Notes under the pieces: generated by a model
Databases searched by the model: none
The model's input: only the letters and a program-made list of their open reading frames with translations
Told to the model about the DNA's origin: nothing
Program-made: the position numbers and the translations under genes
From: a virus
Length of the DNA stretch: 10,913 bases
Direction: 5' to 3' (one strand)
Virus genome (UHGV): UHGV-0220142
In this document: positions 1,491 through 10,302 of the stretch, in pieces
How the letters are laid out: the number at the start of each line of letters is the position of its first letter
Numbering within the stretch: the first letter of the stretch is position 1

Positions 1491-1793
1491 ATGTTATACT
1501 CAAAAGCTCGTGAAATTTATGAAACTAAAATTAAAGACGCGGTTCATCAGTTCGCAACGACAATGCGTTGGACAAATGATTGGGAGTATTCAAAAAATCA
1601 TAAGAAGCCCCTGGTGACAAGAAAGGCTCATATGTTAGTGTTAATAGACCGTGAGCAGATTAAAGCCCGAGAAGCCCTCCAGAATCATAAAAAGGCTGCC
1701 TTTGAATGGTTTATGGATAACACTGCTCCTGAGACTAAGAAAGCAGTGAGCGCGTGGTTCAGTGGAAAAAATTGTGAAAGAAGTTTCTTTTAG
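1491..1793 (+). CDS. hypothetical small basic protein, 100 aa
   Basis: ORF-track frame 1479-1793. ATG 1491 is preferred because GGAGG (1481-1485) sits 5 nt upstream of it, whereas ATG 1479 has no SD. Confidence 0.6.
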   Translation: MLYSKAREIYETKIKDAVHQFATTMRWTNDWEYSKNHKKPLVTRKAHMLVLIDREQIKAREALQNHKKAAFEWFMDNTAPETKKAVSAWFSGKNCERSFF

Positions 1794-1795
1794 TG

Positions 1796-1825
1796 GTTTA
1801 CAAGACTGTTCCTCTGTGGTACTAT
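1796..1825 (+). promoter_or_regulatory. promoter-like element: GTTTAC, 18-bp spacer, TGg-TACTAT
   Basis: GTTTAC at 1796-1801 and extended -10 TGGTACTAT at 1817-1825. Same architecture as the elements at 4767 and 7417. The -10 hexamer is imperfect. Confidence 0.35.
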
Positions 1826-1850
1826 ACAACTATCAACTACGGAGGAACAG
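1806..1850 (+). promoter_or_regulatory. RNA stem-loop sequestering the Shine-Dalgarno of the gene at 1854
   Basis: Perfect 9-bp inverted repeat CTGTTCCTC (1806-1814) / GAGGAACAG (1842-1850), extendable by 6 further pairs with two G-U wobbles (1815-1820 with 1836-1841). The 3' arm contains the SD GGAGG (1841-1845). Confidence 0.5.
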
Positions 1851-1853
1851 AAA

Positions 1854-2381
1854 ATGAATGCTAAAGATATTTTCAACTTGGTAAATTACAACGATGGTAA
1901 ATTTAAATCTGAAGCACAAAGCAAGTTCTTTAATGACATCTCAATTGGAGGTGAAATCACGGTTGATGGAGGACAAATTTATAAATCTCGTTGGAATTGG
2001 ATTGTTATCATCGATGAGATTGGTATTGTAGAAATTTACAAAAATACGAATAAAAATCGTACATTACGCTGGTCTCGTGATACTAACGAACAGTACAAAA
2101 AGGATAAAGCATCTAAGTTATCTCGTGTAACTCAAGAAGATATTAAGTTCATCAAGAAAGATATTTTGATGTATGATAACTTAATTGCTGAAGAGCAAGC
2201 TGTTATTGATAAATTTGATGAGATTAAAGCTTCTCGTGAAATTCCTGATTTTATGAAAGAATCAGTAAATGAACGATACACTCTCATTTCAGAGCGTATT
2301 GAAACTTACAAAAAGCAAAGAGCTGAACGCCAGAATACTCTTCGGAAATTTGAAGAACGGTTAAAGACGGTACTCGCATAA
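1854..2381 (+). CDS. hypothetical protein, 175 aa
   Basis: Long ORF with ATG 1854 preceded by GGAGGA (1841-1846). Codon usage is consistent with neighbouring genes. No recognisable motif. Confidence 0.7.
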   Translation: MNAKDIFNLVNYNDGKFKSEAQSKFFNDISIGGEITVDGGQIYKSRWNWIVIIDEIGIVEIYKNTNKNRTLRWSRDTNEQYKKDKASKLSRVTQEDIKFIKKDILMYDNLIAEEQAVIDKFDEIKASREIPDFMKESVNERYTLISERIETYKKQRAERQNTLRKFEERLKTVLA

Positions 2382-2383
2382 CC

Positions 2384-2407
2384 GCTTTATACCAAGGATG
2401 GTATAAT
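2384..2407 (+). promoter_or_regulatory. middle-promoter-like element: MotA-box-like GCTTTA plus extended -10 TGgTATAAT
   Basis: cGCTTTA at 2383-2389, 12 bp, then TATAAT at 2402-2407 preceded by TGG. There is no sigma70-like -35 at the expected position, which fits the T4 middle-promoter arrangement. Confidence 0.4.
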
Positions 2408-2436
2408 GGTTCTAAGCCCTTTTAATTGAGATTATT

Positions 2437-2844
2437 ATGAAACAGTTGATAATTAAAAGATTGAATTTATTGATATGTTGTTTATGTGTAGTAGTTGCAT
2501 ATGGTTATTACGCAATTAATGATTATATGCATTATAAAGATTATGATGTTACTGTAGTTAATACCCTTACAGGAACTCAAGGAAAGGGGTCTAGTTTATC
2601 GTTTATTGCTGTATATGAACTCAAAGACGGTTATAGATTTAGCGAATATATTTCACCGGAGATGTATTCTTCAATAGAAAAAGGCGATAATATTACTGTA
2701 AGTTTACGTCCTTTCGACGTAAAACAGACATGGTTTGATAATATTGTCTGGTTCTTTGGAATGGTATTAGTTCAATCTGTGTGTGGTGCTTATATAGTCT
2801 TTTCCATCATATTCTGCGTATTTAGTAAAATTGAAATTGAGTGA
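2437..2844 (+). CDS. small membrane protein with two predicted transmembrane segments, 135 aa
   Basis: Hydrophobic stretch LNLLICCLCVVVAYGYYAI near the N-terminus and FFGMVLVQSVCGAYIVFSIIFCVF near the C-terminus, flanking a ~75-aa polar domain. Preceded by a promoter-like element at 2384-2407. Confidence 0.65.
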   Translation: MKQLIIKRLNLLICCLCVVVAYGYYAINDYMHYKDYDVTVVNTLTGTQGKGSSLSFIAVYELKDGYRFSEYISPEMYSSIEKGDNITVSLRPFDVKQTWFDNIVWFFGMVLVQSVCGAYIVFSIIFCVFSKIEIE

Positions 2845-2851
2845 GGAAAAT

Positions 2852-3739
2852 ATGTCAGTAGTAATTAATAATGTCAATACAGTAATTAAATCTTTAGTTA
2901 ATAAAAAAATGAATGAATGGACTGTACTTCGTCGTGGAGAGCCAGATAAATTTTTTCATAGATTTAACCCAACTTTGGATTTGAATGTTATTGACAGAGA
3001 TGTTCATGCTGAAATTTTAGATAAGTTTAAAGTTGATATTGGATTTGGATTAGAAAAACATTTACAGCGAACAAACGGGTCTGGAATGAGTTTATCTAAT
3101 CGCATCATGAAAGCCCTTAATAAAATTGGAGCGTTGTCTCGTATTAATGCGAGTGAAATCCTTCGCAATTATAATAAAGGATATGACCTTTATGGTCGAC
3201 TAATGCCGAAATTATCATTCGATCAAATGATTGCGGATTTGTGGGAAAATCAACGACGATTATTAGCATTAGGCGCTCGATTAGCTAAAGGTCTAGATAA
3301 ACAAATGATTTTTAAGACCAATAATACAGAAGACCTTAAATGCTTTAAATTTAGTATTCGCGGCGATGATTATTATATCAGAGCTCGCTCTACAGATTAT
3401 GTTAATATGGGGCATCATCTCTGTTTAGCTTTTGAAGTTTTAAAAGAAGCTGGAACGTTAGAATATTCATCTGGTGCTAAATGTCCGATTGGTTCAAGTT
3501 GTATTTTAATTTATCGCCCGGATGAATCCAGTTCAACTAAATTGCCTACAAAACCTGTACCAGTTCGTAGTAACGAAAAACATTCTGAACAAATTGATTA
3601 TTTTAATAAACAGATTGAAGAGCTAAATATTTCTATTCAACAATATGACGATGAAATTTTCAGACTATCTGGATTGAGTAGTAAAGCTAAATCTGAGCGT
3701 GAAAAGTTAATTAAAATTGTCGATTTACTTAAATCTTAA
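2852..3739 (+). CDS. hypothetical protein with C-terminal coiled-coil-like tail, 295 aa
   Basis: Track ORF 2831-3739 begins at TTG. ATG 2852 is preferred because GAGG (2843-2846) precedes it. C-terminal ~40 aa show a heptad-like pattern (QIEELNISIQQYDDEIFRL...EREKLIKIVDLLKS). Confidence 0.7.
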   Translation: MSVVINNVNTVIKSLVNKKMNEWTVLRRGEPDKFFHRFNPTLDLNVIDRDVHAEILDKFKVDIGFGLEKHLQRTNGSGMSLSNRIMKALNKIGALSRINASEILRNYNKGYDLYGRLMPKLSFDQMIADLWENQRRLLALGARLAKGLDKQMIFKTNNTEDLKCFKFSIRGDDYYIRARSTDYVNMGHHLCLAFEVLKEAGTLEYSSGAKCPIGSSCILIYRPDESSSTKLPTKPVPVRSNEKHSEQIDYFNKQIEELNISIQQYDDEIFRLSGLSSKAKSEREKLIKIVDLLKS

Positions 3740-3747
3740 GGAACACC

Positions 3748-4767
3748 ATGAAAACTCGTTCTCAAATTGAAGATATGGTTCGTAATGCCAGCTATACTCG
3801 TAATGTTATGACATTTTTGTGCCAAAATAATTTAGACCCTGATAGAGTTAATAGTTCCATTCACTTTAAGTATATGAATAGCAGTGAATGGTTACGTCAT
3901 TTTAGTAAAGCGGGGTATATTACACAAATGACTGCTCGTGAGCAGCTCACCGATTTCTGTAAAACTATTGATTATAAAAATCCTCTATTTGTTCAAGGTG
4001 TTGGTCAGAGTAAGGTCGATTTATCATCTGGATTTTTCAATCCAAATCATTATCGTATTGAATGGAGATTTATTGCTCTATTCCGTAAACAATTAAAGCA
4101 AATTTTGTCAACAGCTAGTCGATTAAAAGGTTCTGACATTAATTTAAAGAACCTGAAATTTGATGGTTATACTCTTCAGATGGAAGTAAGACCATTAAAA
4201 GAAAATAACAGAACTGCACGAATTAGCTTTAAACCTAATACAAAAAATTCTCTTTCAATTTGCGAATGCCTTAAATCGCAGTTGACAGAAGCATTTAAGT
4301 ATATGGATGTTGTTGCCGCTGTTCAGTCTAAGATTTTACCTCGTTTTGAGCGATTTAAATTAGACACAACAACATATGAACTTGATATGATCGTTTCATT
4401 TAAATACGATTTTTTGAGAAAGGACGAAGCCCCGCAAGAGAAAAAGCAAGAAGTGCAAGATAACTTAAATTTATCTAATTACTTATCAAACGATCCTAAA
4501 TTTTGGATGTATAGTTCAGGCAATAATGATGCATGGAAATTTAATAAAGTGAATTTTCTTCCTATTGAAAATCCGAGTCTTAAACCTGTTGAAAAATGGC
4601 ACGCGGATGCGATTGAGAAGTCTCTTAAGGCAGTAGATGATGAACTTGTTAAAGCAACAAATGAAGTGCTAGAAGCTGAAAAGATGCTAGAAAAAGCTCA
4701 AGAAAAAGTCAAAAATCTCACGAAGCAACGTTCTAAACTGAACAATGCACTAAATGCACTAAACTAG
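3748..4767 (+). CDS. hypothetical protein with C-terminal coiled-coil-like tail, 339 aa
   Basis: ATG 3748 preceded by AAGGA. C-terminal ~50 aa are strongly heptad-like (LKAVDDELVKATNEVLEAEKMLEKAQEKVKNLTKQRSKLNNALNALN). Shares a K(Y/I)MDVV motif with the next gene. Confidence 0.75.
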   Translation: MKTRSQIEDMVRNASYTRNVMTFLCQNNLDPDRVNSSIHFKYMNSSEWLRHFSKAGYITQMTAREQLTDFCKTIDYKNPLFVQGVGQSKVDLSSGFFNPNHYRIEWRFIALFRKQLKQILSTASRLKGSDINLKNLKFDGYTLQMEVRPLKENNRTARISFKPNTKNSLSICECLKSQLTEAFKYMDVVAAVQSKILPRFERFKLDTTTYELDMIVSFKYDFLRKDEAPQEKKQEVQDNLNLSNYLSNDPKFWMYSSGNNDAWKFNKVNFLPIENPSLKPVEKWHADAIEKSLKAVDDELVKATNEVLEAEKMLEKAQEKVKNLTKQRSKLNNALNALN

Positions 4768-4796
4768 TTTACTTCGCCACAAGGATGTGGTATAAT
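4767..4796 (+). promoter_or_regulatory. early-promoter-like element: GTTTAC, 18-bp spacer, TGg-TATAAT
   Basis: GTTTAC 4767-4772 (overlapping the upstream stop codon), TGG 4788-4790, TATAAT 4791-4796. Lies 30-60 nt upstream of the SD and ATG of the 4825 gene. Confidence 0.45.
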
Positions 4797-4824
4797 GTTC
4801 TTACTTTCTACTGAGGAGATTAAT

Positions 4825-5751
4825 ATGACTCGTAAACATTATATTGATTATTTTGACAGTCTTATTACTAAACACCGCAATTATCAGATCGGACACAGAG
4901 CAGTAATCAATAATATTCTTCGTGATTTCCTTCAGTATGTTGGCCAGGAAAATCATATCTGTAAAGATACTCAGAACGCTTATTCTCATTCGTTAGGCAA
5001 TTTGCTTGAATGGTTTAAACGTTCTCGTATGTTATCTTCTACTGTAGCTCGTGATAACATTAAAAACTTTATGAAGCCGAGCTTCATTAAAACTGCGACA
5101 TCTATAACTGATTTGGTTGAATTTACTATTATTAACGATGTTAAAAAGACCCATTTGGCTGATTGGTTATCTACCATTCCTGAAACTAAATTTGCTAATA
5201 AATTTGCTTGTCAATTCAATACTCAAGTGAATATGCTTTTTAAGCATGCTCGCAAACTGTTTACCGCGGGCGATGACCGTACAAATACAGTTCATGTTAA
5301 GGACTGGGTTATTGCTGATGAAGTAACACACAAGCCAGGTGGTTCATCAGTATTAATTAATATCCAGGTTCCTTATTATTACTCGCGTAATCTTGGCACC
5401 ATGACAGCTAAAGAAATTAATAAGCACAACAAAACTATTCGTTCGTTGTCTTATAAACTCCGCATGATGTTAAAAATTATGGACGTAGTGGAAATGTATG
5501 ACGAAACCGAAGATAATGGTTCAATGTTATACAGTTCACGCATTCTAATTAAACTGAAGAACCCTAATACATATAAGACAGTTGTAAAAGAGCCTAAAGT
5601 AGAAAAGGTTGATAATTTGAGTGAAGAACGTGAATATCTCAATGCCCGTTTGATTGAAGTTGAAGCCCAAATTGCAGAACACACCAAATTGTTAAAAGCT
5701 CTTAATGCAAAAGCAAATGGTTTACGTAATGCTATTGAGGTATTGAAATGA
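4825..5751 (+). CDS. hypothetical protein with C-terminal coiled-coil-like tail, 308 aa
   Basis: Track ORF starts at ATG 4795, which lies inside the TATAAT of a promoter-like element. ATG 4825 is preferred because GAGGAG (4813-4818) sits 6 nt upstream. C-terminal tail is heptad-like ([44 protein letters not shown]). Confidence 0.7.
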   Translation: MTRKHYIDYFDSLITKHRNYQIGHRAVINNILRDFLQYVGQENHICKDTQNAYSHSLGNLLEWFKRSRMLSSTVARDNIKNFMKPSFIKTATSITDLVEFTIINDVKKTHLADWLSTIPETKFANKFACQFNTQVNMLFKHARKLFTAGDDRTNTVHVKDWVIADEVTHKPGGSSVLINIQVPYYYSRNLGTMTAKEINKHNKTIRSLSYKLRMMLKIMDVVEMYDETEDNGSMLYSSRILIKLKNPNTYKTVVKEPKVEKVDNLSEEREYLNARLIEVEAQIAEHTKLLKALNAKANGLRNAIEVLK

Positions 5752-6137
5752 AAAAGCGTTTATTAGAAGACATTGCAGCTTCAAGTAATTCTAGTCTAAT
5801 TAAAATTATTATGGCTGGTGAAGAAGACGATTTGGAAATGCGTGGAAAGATTCACGGCTGCGACGATTTAGATTTTAAACCTCCAGCATGGGATGCTATT
5901 ATGGCTATGGTTGAACGACGTGAAAGAGCTTCTAAAAACGTTCCTAATTGCCCTGAATGCGGTACTGAACAAGTTCAATTGATTAACTGGCGTAAACCAG
6001 AGCTTGAATATAAATGCCGTCAATGTAAACATAAATTCAGTAAGCATGCTCCGGAAATGGTTAAATTGCCTGACTCTACTGAGTTCTTTAAAGAACTTGT
6101 GAGTGTTCAACCAATGCCTAATAATATTTTGGATTAA
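5748..6137 (+). CDS. hypothetical zinc-ribbon protein, 129 aa
   Basis: ATGA stop/start overlap with the upstream gene at 5748-5751. Two Cys pairs, CPEC and CRQC, separated by 17 residues (C4 zinc-ribbon-like). Confidence 0.65.
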
Positions 6138-6139
6138 AA

Positions 6140-6382
6140 ATGACCAAGCGTAAAGAATATATGGAGACTGCTGAAAAGGCAGTCCGTGAATTAGCAATAG
6201 CGTATTATAATGAACATGGTAAATTTCCTGATAGATACAGCGTGCTTAAATCTGCTTTAACTCGTTCATATAAAAATATGCTATCAGAAGTAAGTGATAT
6301 TATATACAAACATAAAGAACAAACGGGCCAAAGTCTTGATTACGACGAGACTTTTAAACAAGTACTAGGAATTAAGGAATAA
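6140..6382 (+). CDS. hypothetical protein, 80 aa
   Basis: ORF starts 2 nt after the upstream stop and ends 1 nt before the nrdC start. Tight packing supports it being coding. Confidence 0.6.
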
Positions 6383-6383
6383 T

Positions 6384-6647
6384 ATGTTTAAAGTATATGG
6401 TTATGATAGCAACATCCATAAATGTGTGTATTGCGATAATGCAAAACGTCTTTTGACTGTGAAGAAACAGCCGTTTGAATTTATCAACATTATGCCGGAA
6501 AAAGGTGTTTTTGATGATGAAAAAATCGCTGAGCTTCTGACTAAACTAGGCCGTGATACTCAAATTGGTTTGACAATGCCACAAGTATTTGCTCCTGATG
6601 GAAGTCATATTGGTGGATTTGACCAACTGCGAGAATATTTTAAATGA
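6384..6647 (+). CDS. nrdC: phage glutaredoxin/thioredoxin (NrdC), 87 aa
   Basis: 87-aa product with CVYC redox-active dithiol near the N-terminus (MFKVYGYDSNIHKCVYCDNAK...) and glutaredoxin-like length. Sequence matches my recollection of T4 NrdC. AAGGA SD 5 nt upstream of the ATG. Confidence 0.9.
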   Translation: MFKVYGYDSNIHKCVYCDNAKRLLTVKKQPFEFINIMPEKGVFDDEKIAELLTKLGRDTQIGLTMPQVFAPDGSHIGGFDQLREYFK

Positions 6648-6859
6648 TGCTCGAAGGAACTGACTATATTCACGATTACCGCGGAAGCGCGGTATATGTA
6701 GGTGATGAAGTTGCAGTTTATTATGGGTATGGAACTTTGATGACAGCAAAGGTTATTCAAATTAAAAATAATCGTGCTAAACTTGAAGTTTATTATTCTA
6801 ACGGTGAAAAGTCTATTTCTAAGTGGAAATACGGCGATTGTATGGTCAAACTGGGGTAA
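6644..6859 (+). CDS. hypothetical small protein, 71 aa
   Basis: ATGA overlap with the nrdC stop. Sits where T4 has the small 49.x ORFs between nrdC and pin. Confidence 0.55.
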   Translation: MMLEGTDYIHDYRGSAVYVGDEVAVYYGYGTLMTAKVIQIKNNRAKLEVYYSNGEKSISKWKYGDCMVKLG

Positions 6860-6861
6860 AT

Positions 6862-7032
6862 ATGATTTACGATATTAATGTAGCAAGAGCTCCGTCAATG
6901 GTTACTATTCCTGCTGAAGAACTAGATCGTCTTCATAAAATTGAAGAACTTCTTTGGGAAATTGAATCTGATTTGCCATCAGGATTAGAATCCTGGATTG
7001 ATTATGAAGAACTTAATAAATTGCGAAATTAA
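6862..7032 (+). CDS. hypothetical small acidic protein, 56 aa
   Basis: Track ORF starts at GTG 6823, inside the upstream gene. The in-frame ATG 6862, 2 nt after the upstream stop, is the more plausible start. Confidence 0.5.
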   Translation: MIYDINVARAPSMVTIPAEELDRLHKIEELLWEIESDLPSGLESWIDYEELNKLRN

Positions 7033-7042
7033 TTGGTGAAAA

Positions 7043-7363
7043 ATGACTATTGAAAATAAATTAGATGTTGATGCAGTTCTGAGCGAAATTATTGAAGACC
7101 ATGATGCATTTTCAGAAAACTATGATTTCGATTTTTCCGATTATCTTAAACCTGTCGAAATAGAAGACTGGGTGCAAGACGGCAAATGTCAATATCGTCA
7201 GTGTGTTTATTTTAGTCCAAAACATAATGTACATGTTTCCGTAAATGAATCTCGCTCAGGTTCTTACCATTCTGATTGGTATTATGCAGTTCCGACTGTT
7301 GAACTAGTCGAGCCCCGTGAACGTGTAGTAACTCAGACAATACGAGAATGGATTACGCTATAA
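7043..7363 (+). CDS. hypothetical acidic protein, 106 aa
   Basis: ORF with ATG 7043 preceded by GGTGA. No recognisable motif. Confidence 0.55.
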   Translation: MTIENKLDVDAVLSEIIEDHDAFSENYDFDFSDYLKPVEIEDWVQDGKCQYRQCVYFSPKHNVHVSVNESRSGSYHSDWYYAVPTVELVEPRERVVTQTIREWITL

Positions 7364-7486: not shown

Positions 7487-7972
7487 ATGATTACAGTAGA
7501 TAAGTGGTTTAGAATTAATCGTGCTGATACAGGGCTGTGTAATTACTGGCCGGAACTTAGTGCAGGTACTGTCTTTAAAGTTCGTGAACTTGCAAAAGAA
7601 TGTGAAGATGATATAGAGCCTGACACTGGAATTATTGAAATTGAACTTTCTGATGGAAAGATTATTAACATCTACGATAAGCCAATTACGTATTGGTGCT
7701 TGTGGAATACTGAATCAGTAGAAAATGGCGAAATTGAAGAAGTTGTAGATAGAACTAATCAAGTTGTTCAGAAGCCTAAAGCTGATTTTCAAGGTGAACG
7801 TATTTCATACGCATTAGCTAAATTAGCTGCACAAGAAAATAACGATGGCTATGAAGGAAATTTGATGCAAGCTGCGGCAGAATATATTGAATGGCTTGAA
7901 ACCCAAATTTCTTTTTCTGACCAAAAGATTCGGCAATATAAGCGATTGAATCAAATGTTTTACAATACTTGA
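7487..7972 (+). CDS. pin: candidate Pin-like protein (inhibitor of host Lon protease), 161 aa; assigned by position and size only
   Basis: Track ORF starts at TTG 7469. ATG 7487 with GGAGA 7 nt upstream gives a 161-aa product. It lies immediately upstream of gene 49, as pin does in T4. The sequence itself was not recognised. Confidence 0.45.
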   Translation: MITVDKWFRINRADTGLCNYWPELSAGTVFKVRELAKECEDDIEPDTGIIEIELSDGKIINIYDKPITYWCLWNTESVENGEIEEVVDRTNQVVQKPKADFQGERISYALAKLAAQENNDGYEGNLMQAAAEYIEWLETQISFSDQKIRQYKRLNQMFYNT

Positions 7973-8015: not shown

Positions 8016-8488
8016 TGTTATTGACTGGCAAATTATATAAAGAAGAAAAACAGAAATTTTATGATGCACAAAACGGTAAATGCTTAATTTGCCAACGAGA
8101 ACTAAATCCTGACGTTCAAGCTAATCACCTCGACCATGACCATGAATTAAATGGACCAAAAGCAGGAAAAGTACGTGGATTGCTTTGTAATCTCTGCAAT
8201 GCCACAGAAGGTCAAATGAAGCACAAATTTAATCGTTCTGGCTTAAAGGGACAAGGTGTTGATTATCTTGAATGGTTAGAAAATTTACTTACTTATTTAA
8301 AATCCGATTACACCCAAAATAATATTCACCCTAACTTCGTTGGAGATAAATCAAAGGAATTTTCTCGTTTAGGAAAAGAGGAAATGATGGCCGAGATGCT
8401 TCAAAGAGGATTTGAATATAATGAATCTGACACCAAAACACAATTAATAGCTTCATTTAAGAAGCAGCTTAGAAAGAGTTTAAAATGA
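8015..8488 (+). CDS. 49: recombination endonuclease VII (Holliday-junction resolvase), 157 aa
   Basis: 157-aa product with zinc-binding Cys pairs CLIC and CNLC and the HLDHDH catalytic His/Asp cluster. N-terminal sequence MLLTGKLYKEEKQKFYDAQNGK matches my recollection of T4 gp49. Stop overlaps the nrdD start (ATGA 8485-8488). Confidence 0.92.
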   Translation: MLLTGKLYKEEKQKFYDAQNGKCLICQRELNPDVQANHLDHDHELNGPKAGKVRGLLCNLCNATEGQMKHKFNRSGLKGQGVDYLEWLENLLTYLKSDYTQNNIHPNFVGDKSKEFSRLGKEEMMAEMLQRGFEYNESDTKTQLIASFKKQLRKSLK

Positions 8489-10302
8489 CAATTGAAAAAG
8501 AAATTGAAGGATTGATTCATAAAACTAATAAAGACCTTTTAAACGAGAATGCTAATAAAGATTCTCGTGTTTTTCCAACTCAACGGGACCTTATGGCTGG
8601 TATTGTGTCTAAACACATTGCCAAAAATATGGTCCCGTCTTTTATTATGAAAGCGCATGAAAGCGGAATTATTCATTTTCATGATATTGATTATTCCCCT
8701 GCTCTTCCATTTACTAATTGCTGTTTAGTAGATTTAAAAGGAATGCTTGAGAACGGATTTAAGCTTGGTAATGCACAGATTGAAACTCCTAAATCAATTG
8801 GCGTTGCTACTGCAATTATGGCACAAATTACTGCACAGGTTGCTTCTCACCAATACGGCGGAACGACTTTTGCGAATGTAGATAAAGTACTTTCTCCTTA
8901 TGTTAAACGCACCTATGCAAAACATATTGAGGATGCAGAAAAATGGCAAATCGCTGATGCGTTGAATTATGCTCAATCTAAAACAGAAAAAGATGTATAC
9001 GATGCATTCCAAGCTTATGAATATGAAGTAAATACTCTCTTTAGTTCAAACGGACAGACTCCTTTTGTAACAATTACATTTGGTACGGGAACTGACTGGA
9101 CTGAACGAATGATTCAGAAAGCAATTCTGAAAAATCGTATTAAAGGTCTTGGTCGTGATGGGATAACTCCTATTTTCCCTAAGCTTGTTATGTTCGTTGA
9201 AGAAGGTGTTAATCTTTATAAAGACGATCCGAACTATGATATTAAGCAGCTTGCTTTAGAGTGCGCAAGCAAAAGAATGTATCCTGACATCATTTCGGCT
9301 AAGAACAATAAAGCTATCACCGGCTCATCTATTCCTGTTTCTCCAATGGGTTGCCGTAGTTTCTTGAGCGTATGGAAAGATTCGACTGGTAATGAAATTC
9401 TTGATGGACGTAATAATCTCGGTGTTGTAACACTGAATCTTCCTCGCATTGCGTTAGATTCTTATATTGGAACACAGTTCAATGAACAGAAATTTGCCGA
9501 ATTGTTCGATGAACGAATGGATTTGTGTTTTGAAGCTTTGATGTGTAGAATTAGTTCCTTAAAAGGAGTTAAAGCGACTGTTGCTCCTATTCTTTACCAA
9601 GAAGGTGCATTCGGGGTCCGTCTTAAACCTGATGACGACATAATTGAGTTATTTAAAAACGGTAGAAGTTCAGTGTCTTTAGGATACATTGGTATTCACG
9701 AATTGAATATTCTTGTCGGTCGTGATATTGGACGAGAAATTTTAACTAAGATGAATGCTCATCTTAAACAGTGGACTGAAAGAACCGGATTTGCTTTTAG
9801 TTTATATTCGACTCCTGCTGAAAACCTTTGCTATCGCTTCTGTAAACTCGATACAGAAAAATATGGAAGCGTAAAAGATGTTACTGATAAAGGCTGGTAC
9901 ACTAACAGTTTCCACGTTTCAGTAGAAGAAAATATTACTCCGTTTGAAAAGATTTCTCGTGAAGCGCCATATCATTTCATTGCGACAGGTGGTCACATTT
10001 CTTATGTTGAACTTCCTGATATGAAAAATAACTTAAAGGGTCTTGAGGCCGTATGGGATTATGCTGCACAACATTTAGATTATTTTGGTGTTAATATGCC
10101 AGTAGATAAATGTTTTACATGTGGAAGTACCCATGAAATGACTCCTACTGAAAACGGATTTGTTTGTTCTATTTGTGGAGAAACTGATCCTAAAAAGATG
10201 AACACCATAAGAAGAACATGCGGATATCTTGGAACTCCTAGCGTTGTTCCATGGAATTTAGGTAAAATGAAAGAAATGGTAAAACGAGTAAAACATGCAT
10301 AG
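8485..10302 (+). CDS. nrdD: anaerobic ribonucleoside-triphosphate reductase (class III RNR), 605 aa, uninterrupted
   Basis: C-terminal glycyl-radical motif RRTCGYLG, preceding C4 zinc ribbon (CFTCGS...CSICGE) and overall length typical of NrdD. Single continuous ORF. Confidence 0.95.
   Translation: MTIEKEIEGLIHKTNKDLLNENANKDSRVFPTQRDLMAGIVSKHIAKNMVPSFIMKAHESGIIHFHDIDYSPALPFTNCCLVDLKGMLENGFKLGNAQIETPKSIGVATAIMAQITAQVASHQYGGTTFANVDKVLSPYVKRTYAKHIEDAEKWQIADALNYAQSKTEKDVYDAFQAYEYEVNTLFSSNGQTPFVTITFGTGTDWTERMIQKAILKNRIKGLGRDGITPIFPKLVMFVEEGVNLYKDDPNYDIKQLALECASKRMYPDIISAKNNKAITGSSIPVSPMGCRSFLSVWKDSTGNEILDGRNNLGVVTLNLPRIALDSYIGTQFNEQKFAELFDERMDLCFEALMCRISSLKGVKATVAPILYQEGAFGVRLKPDDDIIELFKNGRSSVSLGYIGIHELNILVGRDIGREILTKMNAHLKQWTERTGFAFSLYSTPAENLCYRFCKLDTEKYGSVKDVTDKGWYTNSFHVSVEENITPFEKISREAPYHFIATGGHISYVELPDMKNNLKGLEAVWDYAAQHLDYFGVNMPVDKCFTCGSTHEMTPTENGFVCSICGETDPKKMNTIRRTCGYLGTPSVVPWNLGKMKEMVKRVKHA

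Follow-up and report, generated by a model that had tools for sequence, protein, structure and literature searches.

The eight-gene block upstream of nrdC in a Tequatrovirus genome: a known T4-type cluster that lacks nrdC.4 and is probably an island of separately acting host-range genes

Gene content and identity of the block

The window analyzed here, a 10,913-nucleotide (10.9-kb) stretch of the virus genome UHGV-0220142, carries a block of eight genes at positions 1491 to 6382, all on the plus strand between an endonuclease gene and nrdC. An earlier reading of the letters alone (the sequence-only reading) had placed these eight open reading frames (ORFs) correctly and had put them forward as the best candidate for an undescribed accessory system whose T4 counterpart would be nrdC.1 to nrdC.8. 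By megablast, the whole window matched 1,074 phage records, of which 450 span 80% or more of its length; the closest matches were RB6, RB7, RB9, RB3, and RB14 at about 97% identity; on sequence evidence, the window is from a Tequatrovirus. Because the annotated regions of RB14, RB6, and T4 align with it gene for gene, in the same order and on the same strand, we identify the block as the T4-type cluster of nrdC.9,.8,.7,.6,.5,.3,.2, and.1 without nrdC.4. BLASTP comparison supports orthology, with six of the encoded proteins 91.7 to 100% identical to those of T4 and the products of nrdC.3 and nrdC.2 95 to 99% identical to those of RB14. The block is thus already known as the T4 nrdC.1-to-nrdC.9 cluster and is neither undescribed nor one system; the T4 counterpart extends to nrdC.9, and the full nine-gene complement is not present here, as nrdC.4 has no copy in the window.

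To set the gene starts, the RB14 and RB6 annotation was combined with ribosome-binding sites and alignment. In the mechanical ORF list, three starts lay too far upstream and were moved to 1491 (nrdC.9), 2852 (nrdC.6, rather than the TTG at 2831), and 4825 (nrdC.3); the ATG at 4795 sits within the TATAAT −10 element of a promoter. The genes, with lengths of their products in amino acids (aa), are as follows.

1491..1793, plus strand: nrdC.9, a 100-aa basic protein (isoelectric point, or pI, 9.7); Pfam DUF7203 (E = 1.5e-15), phrog_1931; 98% identical to T4 NrdC.9, with a ratio of nonsynonymous to synonymous substitution rates (dN/dS) of 0.055 versus T4
1854..2381, plus strand: nrdC.8, 175 aa, C-terminal half helical; phrog_2274 (E = 2e-109); 97.7% identical to T4 NrdC.8 and 66 to 84% in other Tevenvirinae genera
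2437..2844, plus strand: nrdC.7, a 135-aa predicted membrane protein; phrog_2547; hydrophobic segments at about residues 1 to 29 and 102 to 134 (hydrophobicity windows) flank a domain of about 70 aa; 91.7% identical to T4 NrdC.7
2852..3739, plus strand: nrdC.6, a 295-aa basic protein; 98% identical to T4 NrdC.6
3748..4767, plus strand: nrdC.5, 339 aa; Pfam DUF7235 over its full length (E = 2.9e-122); 93.5% identical to T4 NrdC.5
4825..5751, plus strand: nrdC.3, 308 aa, an RB14-type allele; 95% identical to RB14 NrdC.3 and 61% to T4 NrdC.3
5748..6137, plus strand: nrdC.2, 129 aa, with a zinc ribbon (CPEC...CRQC), an RB14-type allele; 99% identical to RB14 and 79% to T4 (104 aa), with a C terminus longer than in T4
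6140..6382, plus strand: nrdC.1, 80 aa; 80 of 80 residues identical to T4 NrdC.1

The likeness to the T4 cluster (NC_000866, 48393 to 54248) extends to its position between nrdC.10 and nrdC, its gene order, its strand, and its promoters. The window differs from T4 in the missing nrdC.4, in the RB14-type nrdC.3 and nrdC.2, and in having, between nrdC.10 and nrdC.9, a seg-like gene for a homing endonuclease that is absent from T4.

Each of the eight ORFs matched a PHROG family (E = 1e-36 to 1e-169), dN/dS versus T4 and RB14 is 0 to 0.37 throughout, and purifying selection acts on all eight genes. The sequence-only reading had described a basic nrdC.9 product, a two-transmembrane nrdC.7 product, a zinc-ribbon nrdC.2 product, and coiled-coil-like tails in the proteins of about 300 aa, and these descriptions were borne out, the tails as helices in the models of NrdC.6 and NrdC.5. 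Its statement that no enzymatic motif is recognizable held as well: the eight proteins matched no enzyme, structural-protein, or defense family in Pfam, PHROG, NCBIfam, or PADLOC, the last two scans yielding sub-threshold noise only, and sequence searches of the PDB with NrdC.5,.1,.2, and.8 and with NrdC.3 and NrdC.6 profiles returned nothing below E = 0.19. NrdC.8 had no match in Pfam, NCBIfam, PADLOC, or PDB; the Zn_ribbon matches of NrdC.2 and the coiled-coil matches of NrdC.3 (e.g., to prefoldin beta) were sub-threshold. The NrdC.5 family, DUF7235, is limited to T4-like phages.

These searches bear on the idea that the block serves nucleotide or redox metabolism, its genes being accessory factors tied to nrdC and nrdD. 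The block adjoins nrdC, nrdD, and nrdG; many GenBank and UniRef records call homologues of nrdC.1 to nrdC.6 “thioredoxin,” and phrog_9774 is labeled “NrdC-like thioredoxin.” However, a thioredoxin or glutaredoxin identity was rejected for the block proteins, none of the eight having such a match in Pfam or NCBIfam; the only CxxC pairs are those of the nrdC.2 zinc ribbon, and the phrog_9774 match is limited to that ribbon (residues 53 to 102). The labels track gene names and appear to have been copied from them rather than assigned by homology, and the grouping of nrdC.8 with nucleotide reductases in the DRT1 paper likewise appears to be based on the gene name only. We therefore give almost no credence to a metabolic role for the block.

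Promoters of two temporal classes

Promoter-like elements had been noted at 1796, 2384, and 4767. All three hold up, as two early-type promoters and one middle promoter that depends on MotA and AsiA.

1796..1825, plus strand: early-type promoter for nrdC.8; GTTTAC, a 17-bp spacer ending in TG, TACTAT
2384..2407, plus strand: PnrdC.7, a MotA/AsiA-dependent middle promoter; MotA-box core GCTTTA, 12 bp, TATAAT
4767..4796, plus strand: early-type promoter; GTTTAC, a 17-bp spacer ending in TG, TATAAT

The window holds three copies of the pattern GTTTAC-N15-19-TAnnnT, all on the coding strand, versus 0.76 expected, and 8 of 200 shuffled sequences reach three. A generic sigma-70 scan of the window was uninformative in this AT-rich DNA (48 found versus 47 expected), and the MotA-core pattern was not above chance (2 found versus 1.2 expected); the case for the promoters rests on position, conservation, and published mapping in T4. 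Of the four intergenic gaps that measure 50 bp or more, two hold the elements at 1796 and 4767; both elements lie just upstream of ribosome-binding sites and hold their positions in loci of other genera even though the flanking sequences diverge. At 1796, GTTTAC and the −10 element are position conserved in Tequatrovirus, Mosigvirus-like, and Dhakavirus-like loci, with a diverged spacer, and five further genera-level loci also have a 4767-type promoter upstream of nrdC.4. From consensus, position, and conservation, we infer that both are of the T4 early type. Early transcription would also fit the moderate cleavage by RegB of the GGAG in the ribosome-binding site upstream of T4 nrdC.8 (PMC1702504).

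The element at 2384 is sequence identical to its T4 counterpart and would start transcription 23 nt before the nrdC.7 ATG, as in T4, where the PnrdC.7 start site was mapped experimentally to 53325 and the ATG lies at 53302 (PMC2988021, Table 1). Given this identity and the same start-site geometry, the element is PnrdC.7, the middle promoter mapped in T4; its 12-bp spacing agrees with the distance of about 12 ± 1 bp between a MotA box and a TAnnnT −10 element, although its full 9-nt MotA box is imperfect (ACCGCTTTA versus wwwTGCTTtA).

Two further observations concern these promoters. The spacers of PnrdC.7 (2390 to 2401) and of the nrdC.4-type early promoter (4777 to 4790) share a short palindromic motif (CCAAGGATGG / CCACAAGGATGTGG) that is conserved across genera, being found also upstream of nrdC.4 in loci L004, L013, L016, L020, and L021, and in T4 and RB14 its core CAAGGATG is present upstream of nrdC.3 as well. 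In addition, by coordinate transfer, the mapped T4 middle promoters PnrdC(1) and PnrdC(2) (start sites 48492 and 48465) fall in the stretch 6243 to 6310, with starts at about 6283 and 6310, and a TGCTTTA MotA box lies at 6253 to 6259, all within nrdC.1; the middle promoters of nrdC itself are therefore embedded in the gene whose T4 product is reported to inhibit the defense system Septu (see below).

Allele mosaic and a family of diverged paralogues

In the junction alignment (4740 to 4850 of the window), the nrdC.4 promoter, the ribosome-binding site, and ATG-ACT-CGT-AA are fused to the body of nrdC.3, and the same nrdC.4-minus junction is present in 27 of 581 phage records. This arrangement fits loss of nrdC.4 through recombination of its 5′ end with the similar 5′ end of nrdC.3. 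The element at 4767, which is the nrdC.4 promoter in T4 and RB14, here precedes nrdC.3 and would drive it, so that nrdC.3 would gain an early promoter that it does not have in T4 or RB14. Further, the synonymous divergence (dS) of nrdC.3 and nrdC.2 (4825 to 6137) from T4 is 0.84 to 1.0, whereas that of the neighboring genes is 0.1 to 0.2. This contrast points to a recombinational allele swap, the alleles matching those of RB14-type phages, and makes the block an allelic mosaic.

In the protein P0056, from metagenome contigs, NrdC.5 and NrdC.3 are naturally fused in frame at a short ...(K/Q)VN motif common to the two, whereby nrdC.4 is removed. This natural chimera was taken out of the profile sets used below and ORFs were trimmed to their true starts, as the chimera and the translated promoter and ribosome-binding sequence of ORFs begun too far upstream would both inflate scores.

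NrdC.3 and NrdC.4 share 26% identity by BLASTP (E = 5e-8) and align as profiles in hhalign with a probability of 97.8% (E = 7e-13). An exhaustive HMMER search of 1.84 billion proteins with the NrdC.3 profile returned five hits, consisting of NrdC.3 sequences and an NrdC.4-like protein (E = 1.4e-6), and found no relatives outside T4-like phages. By these comparisons, NrdC.3 and NrdC.4 are clear paralogues. NrdC.5 aligned with the NrdC.3/4 profile over 244 columns (94.3% probability, E = 1e-7) and, once Marfavirus and Jiaodavirus members were included, over 240 columns (97.8% probability, E = 7e-13), whereas the controls, four unrelated families taken from these loci, gave E values of at least 0.15. 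For NrdC.5 against NrdC.3/4, a separate hhalign run on independent alignments agreed (80%, 1.5e-5). We conclude from these profile alignments that nrdC.3, nrdC.4, and nrdC.5 are diverged paralogues, a relationship that is new in this analysis.

NrdC.6 probably belongs to the same superfamily as a distant member, the similarity being limited to its N-terminal domain. Against single families it scored E = 0.01 to 0.09, and against a merged superfamily profile it scored a probability of 90.9% (E = 1.1e-6), but over only 91 N-terminal columns. Its AlphaFold2 (AF2) model has a predicted local distance difference test score (pLDDT) of 80.6 and ends in long C-terminal helices, and no relative was found for it among solved structures. 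The AF2 model of NrdC.5 also ends in long C-terminal helices; its pLDDT is 51, from a shallow alignment (21 sequences, mostly more than 85% identical), and it was not used for fold search. The order of elements is the same in the low-confidence NrdC.5 model and the NrdC.6 model: a helical N-domain, beta-beta-alpha-beta-beta, a disordered linker, and C-terminal helices. A Foldseek search of BFVD with the NrdC.6 model matched 309- to 335-aa proteins of other T4-like phages (E = 5e-7 to 2e-3). Judged by length and position, one of these proteins (326 aa, Klebsiella phage Mineola) would correspond to the gene immediately upstream of the nrdC.2-like gene, and the family of that gene scored 95% against NrdC.3/4. 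The proposed features of this phage-specific family are a helical N-terminal domain with a conserved F-K-x-S/G-x-L-S...A-R-D/E-x-L-x-x-F motif, a core of beta-beta-alpha-beta-beta order, a linker that varies, and a coiled coil at the C terminus. Given the paralogy of NrdC.3,.4, and.5 and the probable membership of NrdC.6, the three genes of the block encoding proteins of about 300 aa would form a tandem array related to a known counter-defense protein, NrdC.5. As another natural rearrangement in the array, the NrdC.6 of Shigella phage Sf25 (P0093) has an internal duplication of about 83 aa, for a total of 378 aa.

Counter-defense functions and the behavior of the genes across loci

The suggestion that anti-defense functions reside in this hypervariable early region was right, and such functions have already been shown in T4. 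When T4 nrdC.5 is the only gene expressed, a deletion mutant regains the ability to plate on MG1655 that carries the Dsr1 of ECOR17 (PMC9391042). By sequence, NrdC.5 of the window is the orthologue of this anti-Dsr1 protein, the Dsr1 phenotype being known for the T4 allele. T4 NrdC.1, which has no recognizable domain, is reported in a preprint to be a bona fide Septu inhibitor (bioRxiv 10.1101/2025.11.20.689424); it has no effect on OLD, a defense nuclease inhibited by the neighboring gp49.2, as reported for T6 Gp49.2 (PMC13096335). In transposon mapping, T4 nrdC.1 to nrdC.9 are all nonessential on laboratory Escherichia coli and none is classed as having a fitness defect, and nrdC.1 to nrdC.6 can be deleted (PMC9825161). 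In the open-access literature, we found no mention of nrdC.3,.6, or.7, and mentions of nrdC.2,.4, and.8 are incidental only (a sub-threshold domain match, a strain difference, the RegB site, and a transcript change).

To see how the genes are distributed, 31 loci were compared: T4, RB14, RB6, SP18, Marfa, and 26 IMG/VR contigs found via NrdC. Tequatroviruses have the full gene set. Other Tevenvirinae retain nrdC.8,.6,.4,.2, and.1 and an nrdC.5 at 25 to 29% identity, with.9,.7, and.3 variably missing; nrdC.7 is missing from most non-Tequatrovirus loci. Distant genera (Marfavirus and Jiaodavirus) retain only nrdC.2 and nrdC.1, plus one 315- to 326-aa protein, nrdC.2 (49 to 65% identity in distant genera) being, with one other gene, the most widely retained in the block. 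The nrdC gene and gene 49 are present in nearly all T4-like loci, although gene 49 had no match in L015 and the nrdC match was weak in the four most distant loci. Across the 31 loci, the block genes do not co-occur as a set but are lost or retained gene by gene.

This pattern weighs against the proposal that the eight genes form one co-functional system, an operon-like machine. They do lie on the same strand, are tightly packed (with gaps of −4 to 8 nt between several genes), and keep their order in Tequatrovirus; tight packing on one strand is, however, general in T4 early regions. Single genes suffice in the published assays, nrdC.7,.9,.3, and.4 vary independently, distant genera keep only.2 and.1, nrdC.4 is missing both here and at the same junction in 27 complete deposited phage genomes, and three promoters of two temporal classes lie within the block. 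A single multigene system is thus highly improbable, and the label of an undescribed accessory system does not fit an annotated T4 cluster whose genes act singly in the published tests. Given the independent gain and loss, the sufficiency of single genes in published tests, and the three internal promoters, we consider it likely that the block is a dispensable island of independently acting host-range (counter-defense) genes rather than one machine.

An alternative for the genes other than nrdC.5 and nrdC.1 is that they take over host physiology, acting in transcription, at the membrane, in DNA binding, or in superinfection exclusion, and not in counter-defense. Five of the products (NrdC.9,.8,.6,.5, and.3) are basic, with pI values of 8.9 to 9.7; NrdC.7, like the T4 exclusion proteins Imm and Sp, is a membrane protein; a zinc ribbon is present in NrdC.2; and NrdC.3 weakly matches the N-terminal SAM-like domain of tyrosine recombinases. 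This last lead (E = 8e-4 in NCBIfam and 0.06 in Pfam) recurs in related sequences, with 8 of 20 family members matching. The identity was nonetheless rejected, as the match scored 14 bits in Pfam against a cut-off of 22.3 and 18.7 bits in NCBIfam against 279, and all the matches of this kind fall below the family cut-offs; the listed fold matches of the probable paralogue NrdC.6 included no recombinase. The genes' being nonessential, with none classed as having a fitness defect in the transposon screen, and the counter-defense phenotype of the paralogue NrdC.5 also argue against host takeover, which we regard as unlikely.

Several points nevertheless weigh against an island of counter-defense genes and against the array within it. 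Published phenotypes cover two of the eight genes, and HIDEN-SEQ reported no further block gene as an anti-defense hit on the hosts used (bioRxiv 10.1101/2025.11.20.689424). The anti-Dsr1 evidence for NrdC.5 is genetic complementation, the Septu inhibition by NrdC.1 comes from a preprint, and a PDB search found no structure of either protein. NrdC.5 of the window differs from that of T4 at 6.5% of residues, and its specificity could therefore differ. Finally, NrdC.6 is linked to the superfamily by one merged-profile comparison and by Foldseek matches identified only by length and position.

If the block is an island of this kind, host sigma-70 RNA polymerase would transcribe it both from the strong early promoters (1796 and 4767) and through upstream read-through, and once MotA and AsiA are made, PnrdC.7 at 2384 would also fire, as shown in T4. 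The block proteins would hence be present before host immune sensors respond to late products. NrdC.5 would neutralize Dsr1, a SIR2 NADase with a TPR sensor, as the T4 genetics show, possibly as a stoichiometric binder by analogy with DSAD1 on DSR2, and NrdC.1 would neutralize Septu, as reported for T4. NrdC.3, NrdC.6, and the missing NrdC.4 might inhibit other host factors or serve as decoys for them, and each of nrdC.9,.8,.7, and.2 is probably one more host-range factor that acts as a single gene. The Dsr1 TPR sensor is reported in a preprint to recognize major capsid proteins (PMC12803255). A possible, if doubtful, extension is that each copy of the fast-diverging nrdC.6/.5/.4/.3 array neutralizes a different member of a family of host immune sensors, e.g., Dsr1/Avs7-type TPR sensors recognizing the major capsid protein, and that gain, loss, and allele swapping of copies tune host range.

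Two known cases resemble the island. DSAD1 of phage SPbeta inhibits DSR2, a SIR2-domain NADase that senses a structural phage protein, which makes it a functional analogue of NrdC.5 acting on Dsr1. No sequence or fold relationship was found between DSAD1 and NrdC.5, which has its own Pfam family, DUF7235. The T4 dmd-tifA-adfA “anti-TA (toxin-antitoxin) island,” together with the adjacent gp49.2 (anti-OLD) and Pin (anti-Lon), likewise consists of small, dispensable early genes in hypervariable regions, each neutralizing a different host factor. Those proteins and their targets are different ones, and the nrdC block has in addition the tandem array of paralogues of about 300 aa.

The genes that surround the block in the window are the following.

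81-692: nrdC.10, C-terminal part, upstream of the endonuclease gene
689-1408: seg-like GIY-YIG endonuclease gene, between nrdC.10 and nrdC.9
6384-6647, plus strand: nrdC, a true glutaredoxin, downstream of nrdC.1
6644-7032: two small ORFs (71 aa and 56 aa) of the RB32ORF082c and 081c types
7043-7363: gp49.2 orthologue, 95% identical to T4
7487-7972: pin, preceded by 49.1, which follows 49.2
8485-10302: nrdD (605 aa), preceded by gene 49

With gp49.2 acting on OLD and Pin on Lon, the run of host-factor inhibitors is prolonged past the coordinates of the block. The 71-aa and 56-aa ORFs replace T4 gene 49.3, marking another hypervariable spot adjoining nrdC, and nrdD is intact here, whereas that of T4 has a group I intron with I-TevII. 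The seg-like homing endonuclease gene is found in RB14, RB6, and a few others and not in T4 or most loci. SegB is reportedly a driver of anti-defense locus amplification, and the homing endonuclease at the edge of the island may matter in that light.

The region is textbook T4 “dark matter,” and its recognition prevents a known cluster from being reported as a new system. The paralogue family and the nrdC.4-minus, RB14-allele configuration are modest additions to that cluster, which make targeted tests straightforward: two genes of the candidate set have defined defense targets, and the paralogy suggests that other copies in the array may be counter-defense proteins of other specificities. The natural nrdC.4-minus and RB14-allele variants are ready material for host-range comparisons, which are relevant to therapy with T4-like phages.

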